DNA from: a virus
Lineage: Duplodnaviria; Heunggongvirae; Uroviricota; Caudoviricetes
Virus record (IMG/VR): IMGVR_UViG_2703718772_000011
DNA length: 64,000 nt
Reading direction: 5' to 3' (one strand)
Both the position numbers and the translations under genes were made by a program. Shown here one piece after another: positions 22,446 to 41,230 of the stretch (positions are counted from its first letter, which is position 1; each line of letters starts with the position of its first letter). A model generated the notes under the pieces. That model saw only the letters and a list, made by a program, of their open reading frames with translations, made no database searches and had not been told where the DNA came from.

Positions 22446-24785
22446 TTACTCTTCTACTGACTCGGTGGGGTTGTCTTTTGCTCTTCGGTCGTCGATTGCC
22501 TGCAAAGCCGCAATGATTTCAGCCAGTGGCTTCTCCCGATACATCTCGACGATCTGCGATTTGGTGTATTTCTTGTCACCAATTTCAACTCGCCCGCTGG
22601 CGTTCTTTGGCAGGTATCCTTCTTCCAGCATGTACTCGACGAGCGATTCGATAACGTCGAGGCCACGAGTAGGATCGAAGTAGAATTTCCAGGTGCATTT
22701 GCCATACGGTGGTGCAACTTTGTTTTTGATGCATTCTGCGCCTACGTCCTGGCCGATCTTCTCTTTACCATCCTTCATCACCGATGCACCAAGACGGATA
22801 CGTACAGAAGCGTAGAACTTCGGTGAATCTCCACCTGGCGACGTAGTAGGGTCGCCAAACATTACACCGATTTTTGTGCGAACCTGATTCAAGAAGATGA
22901 TGCAGGCGTTGTATTTGCGTGCCCACAAAGCCAGAGTAGGGAAGTTCGCACTCGTCGCACGAGCCAGTGCCGTATTGTCGTTCATGTTTAGCTGATCTTT
23001 GTCTTTGGCAGTGCCTTCAGCCATCTTTTCGAACTTCTCGGCTTTGGAGTTCGGAACCATAGACGCAAGAGAGTCAGCCACGATACAGATTGGTGCTGAT
23101 TCGGGGATAAGCTCTTCATCACGAACCAATTTAAGTATTGTGCCGATCAACTCTACAGAGTCTTCGAAGGTATCTGGCTGCTTGTATACCCACTGACCGT
23201 CATCCTCATCTGCGTTCAGGCCATTGGCTACAGCCAGGCCAACGTCAAAACTGTTTTCATGATCGAGGAATACCGCCAGACCATCTTGTTTTTGAGCGGA
23301 GATCATCGCTGCTGTTGCAAGGAATGTGTTGTGGCTGATAATCCCGTTAGACCAGAAAGAGTGTGTTTCCGGCATCGCTACGTCGAACGTTGGCGCTTCA
23401 CCTTCCTCAATAGCCACGACTTCGTCGTAGAACAAGTTAGAGCCAATTACCGCTGCCAGTTGTGCAAACAGATGCTCGTTAAAACGATTCTTTCTGCCAA
23501 TGAAGGAGACATAGATTTCTCGCAGTTTGTCTATTCCGACACGATCGCCGCGGCCAATAACGTGGTCTACCAGAGCGTAGTCTTCACGGGTGGTCTTGGT
23601 GAGCGACTCGTAGAGTGATTTCACTAAGCCGCTGATGTGCGGAACATAGCCTGAGTAAGTGCGGTCAAAACCAATGTCCCGTTTGGTTGCCACTGATAAA
23701 CGTGCCGGAGATTCGAAACCAATCGTTGACAGAAAAAGGTCGTAATTAGAGCCACTGAATGACAGCCGGTAATATGTATTTTCATAACCCGCGACGTGTT
23801 TTTCAGAGATAGTTGACGTAATCCCCAGATTCAGGAGCATGAGGCGAATTTGCTGTAGCAGCAGCCCACTCGCGCTCACAACCTCAATGCAGCGACCATC
23901 ATTGACGTGGCATTCCAGCTCAAAGTAGCCGCGAAGGAATGCAATTTGAGCCTCGCTATTGGCGCGACGCACACTCAACGGAACCTGCTTGCCAGCAGCT
24001 TTCTCATACTCCAGACCATATTCTTTAAAAAGCAGCGAACGCACCTCTTTGCTAAACAGCACATGGTCTTCCGAGCCGTTATGTTTTCTCGTAACTGGCA
24101 TCTTGTCTGATACCAGCGAAATGAGGCGGTAGTACTCATCCTTGATGAAAGGATCTGTGTTAGAAAAATTCACTGAATTTTCAGAGGCCACGTATCCGTC
24201 AGCAATTAAATAGCCCATCAGTTTTGCGATATTGGCATCCAGGTGCTGATCGCCGAATTGATGTGTGCCAACCATTGAAGGAATCGTGTCGCCTACACTG
24301 ATTTTTTCAGCATGTCGCCAGACGACATTACCTAAGTCGTCAACCACACGGATTGGGTGACGGAACGTAGCCTCGATATAACCGCCTGATGCCAGCTTAA
24401 TACGCTTGAATTTGCGACGGTTGTTCCATGTCAGGTGTGAGGTCTTCTCTATCACGCCATTTTCATTGATGAGTCCAACGTTATGCTCTACATCGCGAGT
24501 AGTGCATGTCGCTTTGTACCCTTCAATCTCAAACAACTCTTTCACTGTTACCATTCCACGCTCCGTCAGCAGCATGGTGTCTGCGGTAACACATTTCCCC
24601 GCACTTGGAGGACCGAATACTTCGACGATACGACCACATGGGAAGCCGCCATCGTAACGACCAGAAATAGCTTTGTTTAACGGTGGAAAGCCTGTATCAA
24701 TCCAATGAGTTACTTTCTGAATTTCGTCGTTGCTACCGATTTTCTTTTTCAGAGCAAGTGCCAGTGCGGATTTTCCTTTTGCCAT
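22446..24785 (-). CDS. recA: RecA-family recombinase interrupted by an intein
   Basis: Exteins (about 357 aa) align with E. coli RecA (GRIVEVFGPPSAGK / TFLATAAMISAQ..., IIFLNQVRTKIGVMFGDPTTSPGGDSPKFYASVRIRLG). A 422-aa insert splits the Walker A loop. Confidence 0.85.
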   Translation of the reverse strand: MAKGKSALALALKKKIGSNDEIQKVTHWIDTGFPPLNKAISGRYDGGFPCGRIVEVFGPPSAGKCVTADTMLLTERGMVTVKELFEIEGYKATCTTRDVEHNVGLINENGVIEKTSHLTWNNRRKFKRIKLASGGYIEATFRHPIRVVDDLGNVVWRHAEKISVGDTIPSMVGTHQFGDQHLDANIAKLMGYLIADGYVASENSVNFSNTDPFIKDEYYRLISLVSDKMPVTRKHNGSEDHVLFSKEVRSLLFKEYGLEYEKAAGKQVPLSVRRANSEAQIAFLRGYFELECHVNDGRCIEVVSASGLLLQQIRLMLLNLGITSTISEKHVAGYENTYYRLSFSGSNYDLFLSTIGFESPARLSVATKRDIGFDRTYSGYVPHISGLVKSLYESLTKTTREDYALVDHVIGRGDRVGIDKLREIYVSFIGRKNRFNEHLFAQLAAVIGSNLFYDEVVAIEEGEAPTFDVAMPETHSFWSNGIISHNTFLATAAMISAQKQDGLAVFLDHENSFDVGLAVANGLNADEDDGQWVYKQPDTFEDSVELIGTILKLVRDEELIPESAPICIVADSLASMVPNSKAEKFEKMAEGTAKDKDQLNMNDNTALARATSANFPTLALWARKYNACIIFLNQVRTKIGVMFGDPTTSPGGDSPKFYASVRIRLGASVMKDGKEKIGQDVGAECIKNKVAPPYGKCTWKFYFDPTRGLDVIESLVEYMLEEGYLPKNASGRVEIGDKKYTKSQIVEMYREKPLAEIIAALQAIDDRRAKDNPTESVEE
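23328..24593 (-). mobile_element. intein with LAGLIDADG homing-endonuclease domain inside recA P-loop
   Basis: Starts with Cys right after GPPSAGK, ends His-Asn followed by Thr (+1); internal KLMGYLIADGYV and FLRGYFELECHVNDG blocks. Confidence 0.8.
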
Positions 24786-37289: not shown

Positions 37290-37676
37290 ATGTCTGATAA
37301 CAAGATTGAATTTATAGAAAGTCGCTACGCTGCTTTTATCGCAGGGTTGATTGAATCCTCACCTATGAGCCAGGCCCAGATAGCCAAAACAATTGGGTAT
37401 AAAAACGCCAACAACCTTTCTTTAATTAAAAGCGGCAAAATTCCTTTGCCTATCGATAAGGTTCGTCCGCTGGCGCTGGCACTGGGTATTGAGCCAAGTC
37501 GTCTTATGATGATGGTGCTGGAAGAACGCCAACCCGAACTCGCAGCATTTTTATACAAAGAAGGCACTGCTCCTCTTAACGAGGACGAAAAACAGGTTCT
37601 TGCTGCATATAACGAGCGATTCGGTAAAGAGAAAGGCGCATCACAAAAGGTTGTTGAGGCCATAAAGTCTCTATGA
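37290..37676 (+). CDS. XRE-like helix-turn-helix transcriptional regulator
   Basis: HTH segment SQAQIAKTIGYKNANNLSLIKSGK; palindrome GGTAAGcacTTACC about 30 bp upstream of its start. Confidence 0.6.
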   Translation: MSDNKIEFIESRYAAFIAGLIESSPMSQAQIAKTIGYKNANNLSLIKSGKIPLPIDKVRPLALALGIEPSRLMMMVLEERQPELAAFLYKEGTAPLNEDEKQVLAAYNERFGKEKGASQKVVEAIKSL

Positions 37677-38774
37677 AAAATTTACACGAATAAGCTCTGT
37701 TGATAGACGATCTCCCTTAAATTTGTGGTCAATTTCGTCTAAATCGGGTTGCTCTACGATTGATGCGATGTACGTCGAGAAACTTTCTAAGGCGTCTCGC
37801 ATCTCGTCCATATAATCGTGCCGGTCGTAGACCCGATCTATCCCCTCAAGACTGTGGTTCATGATTTTACGTGATACCTCCTGGCTTATGCCTAATGCTG
37901 GGAAGTAACTACGCGCAGTACGGCGCAAATCTCGGGGTGTAAATGGCTCAAGCTCCATCAGTTCTGGTCGTTCCAGAATACGACGTAATGCCTGGGCTAT
38001 TGCCACTTTAGACATAGGAAGGTCTTTCCCGATTTTTTTATTCGAAGGCACGAGCCACTGGCTGTCTTTACCATATTCGAACAACTCTTCAATACAAGTG
38101 CGCATTAATGAGCTTAAAGGCAGAGAATGCTCACGGGCAGATTTGTTCCTCTTGCCTTGATTCCAAACCCCACGCTTAAGATTGAACTCACTTTTTTTAG
38201 CACGCAGTACTTCGTCAGGTCGTCTTGCTGATACAAGACACAGTCTGGCCGCCCATTTTGTACCAGCGCACACATTGAAGTAGTCCCATATATTCCAGAA
38301 CACCCATACCTCTGCGTCAGTCAGCTTCCGCTCGCGGGGCGTGGGCTTTGCGCCACCGGCAACTTTGTTAAGTGACATATCGTTTAACGGTGACACGTCT
38401 ATCATCCCCTGGAAGGCGCACCAGCTAAGGAACTGCTTCATCAGAGAGAAAACGCGGCGGCCCATAACAATTTTGCCATCCAGTATTAGTGGGTTGACCA
38501 GTTGGTTCACCATGAACCTATTAATATCACTTACTTTTACATCGGCAATGTGCGGCAAAACATGTATCAAAATACAATGAACAGCGATCTCTGGCCGACG
38601 TCTGGTTATCAGCAGAGATAAGCGAGTGAATAACATGAATGCGTCCGAGAATCTCATGTCATTGCTGACCTGTGAGATCATAACGGCCTGCATTTGAGAT
38701 GCTCTTTCGAGATACTCTATCGCCTCTTTTGAGGTGTTCTCCGCAGCGCGTGCTCTGTCAAAGCTATTTTTCAT
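37671..38774 (-). CDS. tyrosine site-specific recombinase
   Basis: C-terminal box II-like TPRDLRRTARSYF...MNHS...RVYDRHDY with candidate catalytic Tyr. Confidence 0.6.
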   Translation of the reverse strand: MKNSFDRARAAENTSKEAIEYLERASQMQAVMISQVSNDMRFSDAFMLFTRLSLLITRRRPEIAVHCILIHVLPHIADVKVSDINRFMVNQLVNPLILDGKIVMGRRVFSLMKQFLSWCAFQGMIDVSPLNDMSLNKVAGGAKPTPRERKLTDAEVWVFWNIWDYFNVCAGTKWAARLCLVSARRPDEVLRAKKSEFNLKRGVWNQGKRNKSAREHSLPLSSLMRTCIEELFEYGKDSQWLVPSNKKIGKDLPMSKVAIAQALRRILERPELMELEPFTPRDLRRTARSYFPALGISQEVSRKIMNHSLEGIDRVYDRHDYMDEMRDALESFSTYIASIVEQPDLDEIDHKFKGDRLSTELIRVNFS

Positions 38775-38872
38775 ATGACAATCACCGAGTTACGCCGATG
38801 TACTGTATAAGTAAACAGTATATTAGGCATAGATTCTTATAGGATCAAGAGTAAAAGTAACTCATTTTTACT

Positions 38873-38905
38873 AATGATTCCATACATAGTAGGTATGGAA
38901 TCATT
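38873..38905. promoter_or_regulatory. lox/dif-like site: perfect 13-bp inverted repeats flanking a 7-bp asymmetric spacer (aatgattccatac-atagtag-gtatggaatcatt)
   Basis: About 100 bp upstream of the recombinase start codon. Confidence 0.5.
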
Positions 38906-38954
38906 TTGACGTTGTTTTTTGAATTTTAAGGGAAACGGGAGTGAGTTTGGTGGG

Positions 38955-38984
38955 AATAAAAACGGCTCCTGTGAGCCGTTAAAA
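38955..38984 (-). terminator. rho-independent terminator (acggctc-ctgt-gagccgt plus T-run on minus strand)
   Basis: Directly downstream of the glutaredoxin stop. Confidence 0.6.
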
Positions 38985-39230
38985 TCAGAGGGTGCTGACG
39001 TATGCAGCCAGTTCTGTGTATCCGCCAATCGGTTGGCCATCGATCAGCACTTGGGGGATAGTCTCTACCGGTTTACCAACAATTTCACTTAGTTTTTCCT
39101 TGTCGATACCGGCAGTGGTGATGTCGATGTACTCATAATCACCGTAGCCATGTCCCTTTAGTTGCTTCGCCAGCTCGACCGCACGTTTGCAGTATGAGCA
39201 GTTATCTCGTCCGTAGATAGTGATCGTCAT
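38985..39230 (-). CDS. grxA: glutaredoxin
   Basis: CSYC active site; GKPVETIPQVLIDGQPIGGYTELAAYV parallels E. coli Grx1. Confidence 0.9.
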   Translation of the reverse strand: MTITIYGRDNCSYCKRAVELAKQLKGHGYGDYEYIDITTAGIDKEKLSEIVGKPVETIPQVLIDGQPIGGYTELAAYVSTL

Positions 39231-39577
39231 TGCTTTGCCTCATGCCACTTTTGCTTCAGGAGATAGCCTTCCAGGGGCCAGATTTGATCGATAGCATCTT
39301 TTCGAGCGTACTCGCGACCAACATCAAAGTTGAAGATTTCTGGTCTTACGCACGCAGATTTTCCCGTTACGGTATATCCATTTTTGAGAACCATAACGCA
39401 GAACGTTAAGAGTTTTAACGACTCATGACATTTGTCGATATCTGTTTTTGAATTGTAAACGGAGATGAAGTTATCCCCGTGGCTGGCATCATATGCAGTG
39501 AAATAATGTTCACTTTGAATGAGTTGTTCAATGTGTTCAGGGGTGACTTTTAGTGGTGTGTTATCTTTGCTGGTCAT
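39227..39577 (-). CDS. hypothetical protein (116 aa)
   Basis: ORF overlapping the grx start. Confidence 0.5.
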   Translation of the reverse strand: MTSKDNTPLKVTPEHIEQLIQSEHYFTAYDASHGDNFISVYNSKTDIDKCHESLKLLTFCVMVLKNGYTVTGKSACVRPEIFNFDVGREYARKDAIDQIWPLEGYLLKQKWHEAKQ

Positions 39578-39619: not shown

Positions 39620-39650
39620 CAAAAAAGGGGCCGAAGCCCCTTTGAATTTT
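39620..39650. terminator. bidirectional terminator (aaaaaa-ggggc-cgaa-gcccc-tttgaatttt)
   Basis: GC stem flanked by A6 and T-rich tract; ends the tRNA/hairpin transcription unit. Confidence 0.7.
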
Positions 39651-39718
39651 GCGCTGAAAAAAAGTGTTGCTAGGATGTTAGCAAGCTATGGTTAAGAACG
39701 TCTGCCGTAATTGTCTAT

Positions 39719-39796
39719 CACAGCGTTGAGCGGTCTGGTTTATGTTAGCGGAGTCTTAATCTGGGTGATTAAAAGGCCAAACCGCTCAACGCTGTG
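39719..39796. ncRNA. tRNA-sized stem-loop element 1 (16-bp stem cacagcgttgagcggt / accgctcaacgctgtg)
   Basis: Related stem sequence recurs at 39986, 40116 and 40727. Confidence 0.35.
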
Positions 39797-39798
39797 TC

Positions 39799-39885
39799 TG
39801 GCGGAGAGTAATGGAATCGAACCATCATCGCTTGCGCAATGGGACGGTTTTCAAGACCGCTTGAGCACCATGCTCCCTACTCTCC
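39799..39885 (-). tRNA. tRNA-Ser (anticodon TGA), class II with long variable arm
   Basis: Hand-folded: acceptor ggagagt/actctcc, anticodon loop cttgaaa, T-loop ttcgatt, ends GCCA; D-arm somewhat atypical. Confidence 0.65.
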
Positions 39886-39985
39886 GGCTATTGTGATGGT
39901 CGGTGCTGAACTCCGACACAGGGTTGTAGCAAGCCCCGCAAAGCGCGCACTACTGTAGTTGCGGCACATCAGCCTGTGCATTCAT

Positions 39986-40064
39986 CACAACGGTAAGATC
40001 ACTACCTTTCGACCAGTCATTGTGCACATGAACGACGATTAACCGTAATGATCTTATCGTTGTG
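39986..40064. ncRNA. tRNA-sized stem-loop element 2 (cacaacggtaagatc / gatcttatcgttgtg)
   Basis: Paralogous to elements at 39719, 40116, 40727. Confidence 0.3.
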
Positions 40065-40115
40065 TTGTGAAGCCAGATGCTTATCTTCTGGTTGCTTCAA
40101 AGAGCTGCACTTCCT

Positions 40116-40204
40116 CACAACGGTAAGAGCACTGGTCTGACTCTATCGATTTACGGGCTTGTGGGTCAGTATCGCCGATTCGCCCAATGCTCTTACCTGT
40201 TGTG
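40116..40204. ncRNA. tRNA-sized stem-loop element 3 (cacaacggtaagagc / gctcttacctgttgtg)
   Basis: Abuts tRNA-Thr; no canonical T-loop found. Confidence 0.3.
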
Positions 40205-40205
40205 T

Positions 40206-40282
40206 TGGTGCCGGTTAACGGGATCGAACCGCTGACATCCTGCTTACAAGGCAGACGCTCTACCAACTGAGCTAAACCGGCA
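40206..40282 (-). tRNA. tRNA-Thr (anticodon TGT)
   Basis: Acceptor tgccggt/accggca, D-arm agctcagttggtagagc, anticodon loop cttgtaa, T-loop ttcgatc, CCA encoded. Confidence 0.85.
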
Positions 40283-40285
40283 ATT

Positions 40286-40372
40286 TGGTGGGGAGTGATG
40301 GAGTCGAACCACCCGAGTCGCAATGACAGTAGATTTACAGTCTACCCCGCTGCCCCTACGGACTAACTCCCC
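40286..40372 (-). tRNA. tRNA-Tyr (anticodon GTA), long variable arm
   Basis: Acceptor ggggagt/actcccc, anticodon arm gtaga-ctgtaaa-tctac, T-loop ttcgact, CCA encoded. Confidence 0.8.
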
Positions 40373-40377
40373 TAAAT

Positions 40378-40452
40378 TGGCGATGGTGGGTGGATTCGAA
40401 CCACCGACCAGTTGGTTAACAGCCAACTGCTCTACCGCTGAGCTACACCATC
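40378..40452 (-). tRNA. tRNA-Asn (anticodon GTT)
   Basis: Acceptor gatggtg/caccatc, D-arm gctc-agcggta-gagc, anticodon arm gttgg-ctgttaa-ccaac, T-arm ggtgg-ttcgaat-ccacc, CCA encoded. Confidence 0.9.
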
Positions 40453-40726
40453 AATTCAGCACTGCCAGTATTTATTACTCAACAGTGCCAATCGCGACGG
40501 TTTAGTTTCTGCCAGGAAACGCACCGCTACTTGCACTTTTCGTTAGTGCCAGACGCTTTCGACTTCGCTCAATAGTAGAAGGCAAAATCTTTAAGTAGAT
40601 GATGTTTCTGAGGACAGCACCTACTTTGTAATTTATACAATGTGATATATGGAATCATTTGTTGTGAAAACAGGCACCAATGGCAACAGTGGTTAAACCT
40701 ACACAACAATCCCGTCTTCACAACGT

Positions 40727-40841
40727 TGAGGCCACTACTCCGATTGAATGTTTGCCCAACATGTTACATATCAACGCTCGCCGGTATCTCTGTGAATAGA
40801 ACCTTAGAATTGATAAAAATGTAATGGCCTCAACGTTGTGT
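40727..40841. ncRNA. long stem-loop element 4 (cacaacgttgaggcc / ggcctcaacgttgtg)
   Basis: 15-bp perfect arms about 85 nt apart inside a 700-bp ORF-free region that also holds hairpins at 40921..40994 and 41003..41026. Confidence 0.3.
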
Positions 40842-41230
40842 GCTGGCTAACCATACCAGCCGGGCTACGTCGCCGCTTTTTAACCCAGTATAAACGACAT
40901 AATTGAACAAAATGACGTAACAGAATGGGCGGTCAGTGGCTAAGAATCCGGGAGTCATATGGAGTTGAAAATATACCAACCGCCCATTCTGTTACTTCAT
41001 CGGAGGGAACATGAATGTTCCCTCCTGCGTTCTGCAATCACACTCGCTCAGTGTGTCCCATTTCGGTAACGAGGCTGGAAACTGACCTCGCTGGTGTTTG
41101 GCTTATTAGGCTACTGCCAGATAGACTTCTTCGTTTGCACTTGTATTTAAGTTCAAACAGTCGCGTCTCAACGAAAACAAAGTCATCTTATACATAAAAG
41201 ATAAGTAAGTAAATACTTATCATGATGTTT

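Follow-up and report, generated by a model that had tools for sequence, protein, structure and literature searches.

The window analysed here, the full 64,000 nucleotides (nt) of IMG/VR virus record IMGVR_UViG_2703718772_000011, carries on its minus strand a locus (39620-41213) of four tRNA genes, long hairpins, a structured leader and a module, R1, that resembles part of transfer-messenger RNA (tmRNA). Judging from sequence, we propose that the locus may be one non-coding stable-RNA operon of an SSU5-like phage-plasmid, promoter to terminator, with the hairpins as processing and insulating punctuation derived partly from tRNA pseudogenes; we give this account an even chance of being right. 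Identity to Escherichia phages CMS-2020a and Cyrano is 96-98% in this region. E. coli plasmids of ~108-114 kb, pCP53-113k among them, match 151 nt of it at up to 100%. Farther relatives of the window are SSU5-like phage-plasmids of Klebsiella and Salmonella. In GenBank and RefSeq records of relatives, those from the Prokaryotic Genome Annotation Pipeline (PGAP) included, tRNAs are the sole annotation in the part corresponding to 39.6-41.2 kb.

ARAGORN and Rfam both place four minus-strand tRNAs here, the same four that the first-pass annotation of this DNA had read: tRNA-Ser (TGA) at 39799-39885, tRNA-Thr (TGT) at 40206-40281, tRNA-Tyr (GTA) at 40286-40372 and tRNA-Asn (GTT) at 40378-40452. 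The last three form an Asn-Tyr-Thr run that ends with tRNA-Thr; phage Cyrano lacks tRNA-Tyr. An inverted-repeat search located six minus-strand hairpins, H1 to H6. H1 (arms 39719-39738 and 39777-39796) begins 2 nt past the CCA of tRNA-Ser, and H3 (arms 40116-40135 and 40184-40204) 1 nt past that of tRNA-Thr. H2 has arms at 39986-40005 and 40045-40064, and H4, with arms at 40719-40738 and 40821-40840, encloses an 82-nt interior between arms of 20 base pairs (bp). H5 (arms 40912-40933 and 40979-41000) is a helix of 26-29 bp from a different sequence family and is conserved in SSU5-like phages. H6 (element 41002-41025, arms 41002-41012 and 41015-41025) is a minimal element directly after R1.

All six hairpins fold far better than chance. 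As minus-strand RNA they beat 200 of 200 dinucleotide shuffles, with z from -4.5 to -10.4, the latter for H1. The window holds 11 copies of the arm motif CACARCGKTRAG, where 1.8 +/- 1.5 would be expected, a roughly sixfold enrichment that none of 100 shuffles reached, and seven of the 11 copies fall within 39719-40840. The search and the enrichment together uphold the first-pass claim of four paralogous hairpins with a shared arm for H1-H4; paralogy does not extend to H5, which is of another kind, and H6 is a degenerate member. The tRNA and Rfam searches which that annotation recommended also agree with its view that the hairpins are not canonical tRNAs: ARAGORN reported the four tRNAs only, and Rfam gave no tRNA match on H1-H6 at E<=10 and no family for any hairpin at gathering or relaxed (E<=10) thresholds. 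Some details needed correction. H4 starts at 40719 rather than 40727, H5 spans 40912-41000 and not just 40921-40994, and hairpins and tRNAs are co-located without strictly alternating, the transcribed-strand order being H4 ... Asn-Tyr-Thr-H3-H2-...-Ser-H1. Three features lie beyond the first-pass annotation altogether: the spread of the family in unrelated coliphages, its 3'-side rule, and R1, just past the annotation's end coordinate of 41030.

A hairpin family at tRNA 3' ends

H1-H4 belong to a trailer-hairpin family found in unrelated coliphages. Pieces of 39886-40205 occur in 70 phage records, among them P1, P7, D6, SJ46, Sasha-like siphoviruses, Phapecoctavirus myoviruses and P22-like phages. 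Scanning IMG/VR with a pattern yielded at least 120 loci, and the family counts given here rest on the matches listed. Defined as non-nested hairpins with the ends CACARC...GYTGTG, the family numbers 202 copies among those matches, with 76 distinct sequences and 32 interior classes. Members occur in P1, P7, D6 and in SSU5-like, P22/HK620-like, Sasha-like and rV5-like/Phapecoctavirus coliphages; copies ~78% identical to H2 lie within the tRNA clusters of Phapecoctavirus phages. The family is present in 616 of 5426 E. coli genomes, where it is confined to phage-plasmids and prophages (614 of 646 places are on plasmids). Because family phages share a host range and are not shown to share any phage protein, this occurrence points to a host factor.

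What the family conserves is a paired stem. The lower stem reads CACAAC(A)GGUAA/UUACCGUUGUG or CACARCGUUGAG/CUCAACGYUGUG, the upper stem is variable, and helix length has a sharp mode at 19-21 bp. An identical stem type closes unrelated interiors of ~10-170 nt, giving whole hairpins of 48-209 nt. Over 41 distinct stems, 96.2% of cells are paired, against 80.5 +/- 1.2% (maximum 83.9%) with the 3' arms shuffled, and 15 of 20 stem positions have changed on both sides. Conserved pairing across related genomes, which the first-pass annotation had named as a check on its hairpins, is thus observed. The pairing favours the tRNA-sense strand: that strand has 49 G.U cells against 10 A.C cells, and its folding energy is the better one in 135 of 168 copies. 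H3 has a bulged A after base pair 6, as 27 of 75 copies do. At base pair 17 it carries a U.G pair, which all four window paralogues share and which is the commonest pair at that position family-wide. The 3' flank is conserved as AUGAAK, AUAGAC or AAGACA.

Copies next to a tRNA always follow it. A tRNA is found no more than 5 nt from 96 of the 202 copies, in every case with the copy at its 3' CCA end (Ser 32, Thr 39, Asn 25), and the junctions read CCA + 0-2 nt + CACARC. Loci chosen without regard to hairpins show the tendency too: a hairpin of at least 12 bp starts within 6 nt of the 3' end in 19 of 40 run-terminal tRNAs, against 7 of 41 with one at the 5' side. Close relatives vary in the copies they hold. 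CMS-2020a has one H2/H3 hybrid hairpin; in Cyrano, tRNA-Ser follows tRNA-Thr 8 nt on without H2/H3, and H1 is retained after the terminal tRNA-Ser. Other copies sit elsewhere: in lambdoid phages family hairpins directly flank R1, and 26 copies among the matches listed lie in loci without a tRNA, for example the Sasha structural operon. HK620 has its hairpins in the late leader, with no tRNA in the region examined. Both the Sasha and the HK620 hairpins are co-oriented with the surrounding genes.

Such placement might instead mark DNA-level elements, that is, mobile palindromes or recombination sites at tRNA 3' ends whose RNA fold is a by-product, like miniature inverted-repeat transposable elements (MITE), repetitive extragenic palindromes (REP) or integron attC sites. 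Multiple copies in unrelated phages with presence/absence polymorphism would fit this idea, and so would the conservation of the ends only around a variable centre (48-209 nt, with AAC...GTT near the ends as in attC), a tyrosine recombinase gene 1 kb away in the window, and partial tRNA 3' copies beside tRNA genes, the residue expected of site-specific integration. We nevertheless find it very improbable. H1-H4 show no target-site duplications, there is no transposase (none of ~16 window open reading frames (ORFs) scanned gave a transposase-family match), and the recombinase, which is no integron integrase, is missing from SSU5, from P1 and from virulent hairpin-carrying phages. All tRNA-linked copies, and the Sasha and HK620 copies examined, are co-oriented with transcription, and G.U pairs favour the sense strand. 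The individual candidates fail as well. The ends TCACAAC...GTTGTGW fit the attC R-box RYYYAAC/GTTRRRY at only ~5/7 positions, the stems are fully paired (96%) without an unpaired spacer, and the recombinase matches generic phage-integrase models only. For MITE or REP elements, no direct repeats flank H1-H4 and the interiors are unrelated between subfamilies.

Part of the family looks like decayed tRNA. A subfamily that follows tRNA-Thr in P1 and relatives (cluster #1) is collinear with tRNA-Thr (z 3.9-5.9): it keeps the D-arm and T-arm, has the anticodon arm deleted, and its upper 7 bp are the acceptor stem. H1 is similar in its 5' half to a tRNA D-arm/anticodon region (z 3.7, a score reached by 0 of 60 shuffles), and H1-type and tRNA-Asn-linked copies resemble T-arm/acceptor or D-arm/anticodon segments. 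H2, H3 and H4 showed no significant similarity to tRNAs, nor did the interiors to one another; the consensus arm reached only z 1.7 against the tRNA D-arm, and no T-arm motif was found outside the four tRNAs. The first-pass suggestion of degenerate tRNA copies is accordingly right in part: it fits the P1 tRNA-Thr subfamily and the H1 5' half and finds no support in H2-H4. The most fitting description of the family is a set of tRNA-like bodies, most of them decayed, inside a conserved leader-trailer helix, and we propose that it may have originated at least partly from decayed tRNA copies with pairing leader and trailer.

Decay could also mean that the hairpins are inert relics, tRNA pseudogenes or palindromic duplications that recombination in tRNA arrays had generated, on their way out and kept paired solely through arm-to-arm gene conversion. 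The tRNA-derived interiors of cluster #1 and H1-type copies agree with that, as do the H2-H4 interiors, which look random against tRNAs and against each other, and the dispensability of copies in close relatives. Other observations weigh against it. The lower stem persists at 75-97% identity among phage lineages with little else in common, and stem lengths vary little. Many distinct stems have the U.G pair and the bulged A, and the distance of 0-2 nt from CCA is invariant. We hold inertness to be highly improbable.

The interiors raise another alternative, in which the hairpins themselves are functional small stable RNAs (decoys or sponges for a host protein, a nuclease or a tRNA-directed defence, or regulators) and the tRNAs are mainly processing handles. 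Interior motifs are conserved within subfamilies, namely GACUCCGC in H1-type (tRNA-Ser- and tRNA-Asn-linked) copies and blocks in H4. Some interiors hold RNA modules: an anticodon-arm-less tRNA body with intact T-arm, two T-arms, a hammerhead-like core. Copies also lie away from tRNAs, and the conserved U.G pair, bulged A and 3' flank AUGAAK are typical of protein recognition sites. We think this alternative unlikely. There is no common cargo, since interiors differ almost wholly among subfamilies while the stem is kept; copies are gained and lost among close relatives; and no partner protein or target was identified.

The hammerhead-like core lies at 2138-2184 of locus L088, inside a 209-nt family hairpin (2118-2326). 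It has a type I-like layout, CUGAUGAG-stem-CGAAAC-stem-GUC, and scores 24.7 bits against an Rfam threshold of 34 (E 0.0017 in 800 nt). If a family hairpin did carry a self-cleaving ribozyme, that would be relevant to the processing idea.

Several known RNA identities were considered and rejected. The Felix-O1-like phage Sf13 carries a gene for a DUF2828/TROVE-like 'RNA-binding protein' at the head of its tRNA cluster (locus L009, 3800-4106), which prompted a comparison with the bacterial Y RNA YrlA. YrlA is marked by GNCGAAN0-1G in the 5' strand of a long stem, a T-/D-arm mimic and a neighbouring Ro60/Rsr gene (PMC4201824). That motif is absent from the arms, the window has no Rfam YrlA match, and none of ~16 window ORFs scanned gave a Ro60-like match. 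In the same Sf13 locus (1458-1571), 13-nt inverted repeats sit exactly at the two ends of a tRNA-Ser and lengthen its acceptor stem. H1-H6 are not intrinsic terminators: AUGAAK, AUAGAC or AAGACG follows on the 3' side without a U run, and only the hairpin at 39620-39643 qualifies. Between 39550 and 41300, Rfam gave no match to the small RNA DicF at E<=10; P1 has its 'dicF-like region' upstream of its R1 copy, and the window lacks a counterpart. Nor do the arms suggest anti-CRISPR repeat mimics, having no apparent resemblance to E. coli I-E or I-F repeats.

The segments between hairpins are conserved too. No piece of the locus is conserved more widely than spacer S (40065-40115, 51 nt, minus strand), between H3 and H2, with 94-97% identity in P1, P7, D6 and SJ46 and 82% in Sasha-like phages. 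It showed no significant fold of its own and may be a single-stranded binding or cleavage site. The minus-strand segment between H2 and tRNA-Ser (39886-39985), conserved in P1 and HK620, has no significant fold as a whole. It includes a small hairpin, GCACA-GGCUGA-UGUGC (39964-39979), 6-8 nt past a family hairpin; HK620 has GCGCA-GGCUGA-UGCGC instead (locus L008, ~1895-1915), a compensatory change around an identical loop of boxB-like size.

Whole hairpins can also be lost. Klebsiella-type locus L103, compared with L005, has lost H4 by a clean deletion between two CAACGTTG 8-bp palindromes in the arms, leaving CACGCAACGTTGTG, which shows how this can happen.

The conserved leader and the tmRNA-like module R1

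Upstream of tRNA-Asn, the locus is ORF-free and structured. The stretch 40453-41230 holds no minus-strand ORF of at least 60 amino acids, and its two plus-strand ORFs of 60 amino acids (40642-40824 and 41015-41197) are not annotated in relatives. We aligned 50 distinct SSU5-like leaders of ~780 nt. Across them, pairing reaches 86-99.6% in H6, H5, unit X, H4 and helix Z and only 21-53% in slid controls. H6 leads with 99.6% and both-sided changes in six of ten pairs; in Klebsiella relatives it reads GGTAGGGCA...TGCCCTTACC, much like the family stem. It trails R1 here much as family hairpins trail tRNAs and the lambdoid R1 copies. H5 is 95.7% paired (25-43% when slid), with an A-U to G-C exchange and G.U pairs on the sense strand. 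Unit X (40842-40886, minus), with the stems GGGUUA..UAGCCC and GCUGG..CCAGC, ends ...GCCAGCA right before H4 and is 92.5% paired against 21-46%. The remaining leader up to tRNA-Asn (40453-40718, minus) contributes helix Z, 86.4% paired with nine pairs changed on both sides, and the weaker helix Y at 74%. These compensatory changes bear out both the ORF-free structured region and the H6 hairpin of the first-pass annotation, and by this alignment the region is a conserved structured leader.

R1 (41029-41180, minus) is a tag module without a tRNA-like domain, and it is the most surprising part of the locus. Alignments, covariation and sub-threshold Rfam matches delineate a 5' GUUUUCGUU motif, a tag frame, a stem around the stop codons and then two H-type pseudoknots. 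The tag frame (41103-41138) reads GCA AAC GAA GAA GUC UAU CUG GCA GUA GCC UAA UAA, or ANEEVYLAVA and two stops. R1 matches 317 phage records and 691 of 5426 E. coli genomes and is unannotated under nearly every match listed. Homologues lie between qut and the late terminator in HK620, in the ban-operon leader of P1 beside the annotated 'dicF-like region', inside the tRNA cluster of Felix-O1-like phages, and in Klebsiella phages. A pattern scan of 596 Gb of bacterial genomes gave chance matches only among the 120 listed, the pattern being too short.

The tag is conserved as a reading frame. We retrieved 50 R1 homologues from P1-, SSU5-, P22- and Felix-O1-like phages with a pattern on the pseudoknot side that left the tag untouched. 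Ten codons and a stop are kept in 50 of 50, with the consensus AN[DE]xx[YF]LA[VA]A and with TAA, TAG and TGA all in use; codon positions 1, 2 and 3 are variable at 2, 5 and 9 of 11 sites. The RNA structure is conserved alongside: 85.8% of cells are paired against 73.4 +/- 1.3% after shuffling (0 of 500 reach it) and 32-46% in slid controls, 13 pairs have changed on both sides, and both pseudoknots covary. Upstream indels in relatives are not multiples of three, which rules out a longer conventional ORF. In the window alone, an AUG in the -10 hexamer is in frame with the tag and opens a 26-codon ORF (41103-41186, minus; MTLFSLRRDCLNLNTSANEEVYLAVA), probably fortuitously, since indels of 1 or 2 nt break it in relatives.

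R1 resembles the mRNA-like part of tmRNA in several respects. Its ten-codon tag opens GCA AAC (ANEEVYLAVA against E. coli ANDENYALAA), begins with a resume codon and lacks both a start codon and a Shine-Dalgarno sequence, follows an A-rich AUAAAU-type stretch, and ends in one or two stops within a stem, with two H-type pseudoknots next. Its 5' GUUUUCGUY resembles the GGAUUCGAC D-loop motif of tmRNA, and 32 of 47 nt in the tag region are identical to E. coli ssrA. Four Rfam tmRNA models gave sub-threshold matches on R1 in five loci, covering the tag region only and aligning the pre-resume and resume parts at high posterior probability. The best reached 29.9 bits against a threshold of 47 (RF04321, in the Sf13 locus), with a neighbouring tRNA as its acceptor part; in the window the scores are 14.4 and 14.0 bits, below the Rfam gathering score. 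The differences are as plain. R1 is only ~150 nt long and lacks acceptor stem, T-arm and CCA, its tags end LAVA, LAAA or MVAA rather than ALAA, and it is flanked by family hairpins or, in the window, by the putative promoter. A pseudoknot upstream of the tag was not established, ARAGORN found no tmRNA in the window or in 12 R1 loci, and no T-arm with CCA occurs beyond the four tRNAs in the operon or the 64-kb window. A hidden tRNA-like domain also failed to appear: UUCAACU in the H5 loop is not conserved, and unit X has no T-loop. We regard R1 as a candidate tmRNA-like mRNA-like domain of probable homology to tmRNA, falling short of membership in the tmRNA family.

R1 might be a functional tag template with an acceptor from elsewhere, a decoy for trans-translation factors, or a relic. 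The last would make it a dead piece of host ssrA in a prophage, left for example by imprecise excision and without a role. Integrases that target tRNA or tmRNA genes duplicate the 3' tRNA-like end of ssrA, not the tag region, which speaks against this origin. In its favour, R1 lacks the tRNA-like domain required for trans-translation, and a nucleotide profile of R1 against E. coli ssrA found the tag region without significance (0.8 bits, E 2.6). Prophage ssrA fragments have been reported and attributed to imprecise excision, and complete phage tmRNAs are known, such as the two-piece tmRNA of methylophage Melnitz (PMC9004378). The codon-like pattern kept in four phage groups disfavours a relic: all 50 homologues keep ten codons and a stop, variation is concentrated at third positions with all three stops occurring, both pseudoknots covary, and the frame survives non-triplet indels upstream. 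On balance a dead fragment is somewhat unlikely.

At its boldest, R1 would be a working trans-translation template without its own tRNA-like domain. P1-, SSU5-, P22- and Felix-O1-like phages would then re-programme host ribosome rescue, an ...LAVA tag replacing the host degradation tag; the acceptor would act in trans, possibly supplied by host tmRNA/SmpB or by the anticodon-arm-less tRNA-like RNAs in hairpins, and the hairpins would be processing cassettes that release the pieces. We rate this scenario quite unlikely. An active R1 would be the first tag template to do without a tRNA-like domain and would let phages act on host ribosome rescue; older genetic work shows that Mu and lambda-P22 hybrids rely on host tmRNA. 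In a literature search of partial coverage we found nothing on a tag module without a tRNA-like domain or on the hairpin family, and a prior description is possible.

A proposed operon frame and a possible processing role

Promoter-like and terminator-like signals bracket the locus. On the minus strand, TTTACT-17 nt-TAAGAT (41185-41213) was read from the sequence; in nine representative SSU5-like leaders its hexamers are kept while the flanks vary, and a transcript would start near 41178-41180. At the far end, sequence reading and folding reveal an intrinsic terminator, GGGGC-UUCG-GCCCC + U6 (39620-39643, minus), the likely end of the operon. It has a partial Rfam match to a terminator-like 3' end and was not in the output of a simple terminator scan. 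The operon would thus run promoter, R1, H6, H5, X, H4, leader helices, tRNA-Asn-Tyr-Thr, H3, H2, tRNA-Ser, H1, terminator. Conserved promoter hexamers, leader helices supported in 50 relatives and a canonical terminator lend support to this frame.

The genes just downstream (37671-39577, minus) encode a tyrosine recombinase, a GrxA-type glutaredoxin and a Gp49-family protein. SSU5 lacks the recombinase, tRNA-Ser and H1, and CobT adjoins tRNA-Asn there, so the distal part of the operon may be a separately acquired module.

Building on the observed anatomy, conservation and covariation, strand bias, positional rule and distribution, we propose that family hairpins could serve as RNA-level punctuation. 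Each would start 0-2 nt past the CCA of a run's last tRNA, or after R1, and would supply the endonucleolytic processing site and folding insulator otherwise given by a following tRNA. Co-transcription, cleavage, the enzyme involved and any function of R1 are steps that we infer. Two routes are conceivable, double-strand cleavage of the two-turn stem by RNase III and action of RNase P on the tRNA-like helix. A two-turn helix is the minimal RNase III substrate, and a 19-21 bp helix at tRNA 3' ends appears anatomically compatible with a site for either enzyme. The family may spread between phages with tRNA cargo through recombination at the conserved arms. Dense structure would also benefit a long untranslated operon, as established knowledge of such transcripts implies.

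Punctuation would account for several features: hairpins at 3' ends only, 0-2 nt from CCA and at the ends of tRNA runs, a stem conserved around a free interior, the strand bias, and the spread across phages that have hosts in common and are not shown to share any phage protein. The first-pass annotation had offered processing signals or co-transcribed RNAs as possibilities; compensatory pairing, sense-strand G.U pairs, co-orientation in the contexts examined and the 0-2 nt spacing from CCA are consistent with both.

Other evidence weighs against punctuation. The proposal leaves the tRNA-free copies and the conserved interior motifs unexplained; with 26 copies in tRNA-free loci, release of tRNA 3' ends cannot be the only role, and the conserved interiors (GACUCCGC and the H4 blocks) suggest that the hairpins are not just passive stems. 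As Cyrano shows, tRNA-Thr can do without H2/H3. Intramolecular gene conversion can homogenise the arms of a DNA palindrome and so mimic compensatory change, and part of the G.U bias could be mutational. The hairpins lack a 3' RCCA, which aids recognition of hairpin substrates by E. coli RNase P. A simple sigma-70 consensus scan did not return the promoter at 41185-41213.

The H3 3' arm (40116-40135) contains UGCUCUUA/U, as do 27 of 75 distinct hairpins. This string is identical to the core of boxA, the NusB/NusE site of rrn operons and lambda nut. We rejected a boxA antitermination site as a family feature, given its presence in only 27 of 75 hairpins and its base-paired state; the match may be coincidence. 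Antitermination would make sense in a long untranslated operon.

These structures matter beyond one phage. Phage tRNA clusters are now seen as counter-defence and translation-support modules, and annotation ignores their non-tRNA sequence. The 'spacers' here are conserved, covarying RNA structures common to the model phages P1 and HK620 and to phage-plasmids in more than one in ten complete E. coli genomes. If the hairpins are processing signals, they would define the maturation of phage stable-RNA operons and could be used as portable insulators when tRNA arrays are synthesised. In P1, the ORFs plp and upl (locus L007, 1376-1945, plus; NC_005856, 69472-70041) run across family hairpins on the strand opposite the tRNAs, and the window has no conserved equivalent of them. 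Both may be artefacts of annotating structured RNA and may need re-evaluation.

Genes in the neighbourhood of the locus encode DNA polymerase III alpha, CobS/CobT-like and gp32-like proteins, an intein-containing RecA, ligase, primase and helicase. The RecA-like gene (22446-24785, minus) is split by an intein with a LAGLIDADG homing endonuclease (Pfam RecA, LAGLIDADG_3, Intein_splicing). The plus strand at 28891-29309 matches the cspA thermoregulator model (Rfam RF01766) over its full length with a high score, 187.6 bits where the threshold is 78. A 5' untranslated region of the cold-shock type thus appears to be present in the phage-plasmid, presumably with a csp gene.

Comparison with known systems

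Bacterial genomes hold other transcribed palindromes of this general kind. REP elements and the bacterial interspersed mosaic elements (BIME) built on them, enterobacterial repetitive intergenic consensus (ERIC) sequences and the Correia elements of Neisseria (neisserial miniature insertion sequences, NEMIS) are multi-copy imperfect palindromes in transcribed intergenic regions that fold as RNA. NEMIS RNA hairpins are cut by RNase III, and palindromic repeats affect RNA processing and stability. The trailer hairpins differ in being phage-borne, in lying 0-2 nt past a tRNA CCA and in conserving only the stem around a hypervariable interior; they also lack target duplications, a REP-associated tyrosine transposase (RAYT) or other transposase, and the REP GTAG head. 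Integron attC sites come close in form, as imperfect hairpins of similar length after each cassette, with AAC...GTT ends, a variable centre and strand-specific folding. Unlike them, the trailer hairpins miss the R-box consensus, are fully paired and occur also in phages without a nearby recombinase.

RNase III stems in rrn operons and T7 early RNA are likewise helices of about two turns between modules of one long transcript, and bulges and wobble pairs could tune cleavage in both settings. Trailer stems are local hairpins instead of pairings between distant flanks. In lambdoid phages, however, the 3' arm that precedes R1 is also complementary to the 5' arm that follows it.

Viral tRNA genes with hairpins attached have also been described. 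In the tRNA-microRNA-encoded RNAs (TMERs) of murine gammaherpesvirus 68 (MHV68), as in tRNA-hairpin dicistrons, a viral tRNA or tRNA-like gene is immediately followed by long hairpins in one transcript. TMERs hold one or two hairpins, and tRNA 3' processing sets the hairpin 5' end. They depend on the eukaryotic RNA polymerase III, tRNase Z and microRNA pathways, and no small-RNA pathway is known in the bacterial host. T4 species 1 and 2 (rnaC, rnaD), set beside our hairpins by description only, are non-tRNA stable RNAs in a phage tRNA operon; they are co-processed with the tRNAs, and T4 belongs to a different phage group. By analogy, the trailer hairpins would function most like RNase III/RNase P processing stems and transcribed palindromic repeats, in a layout that resembles the tRNA-hairpin genes of MHV68.

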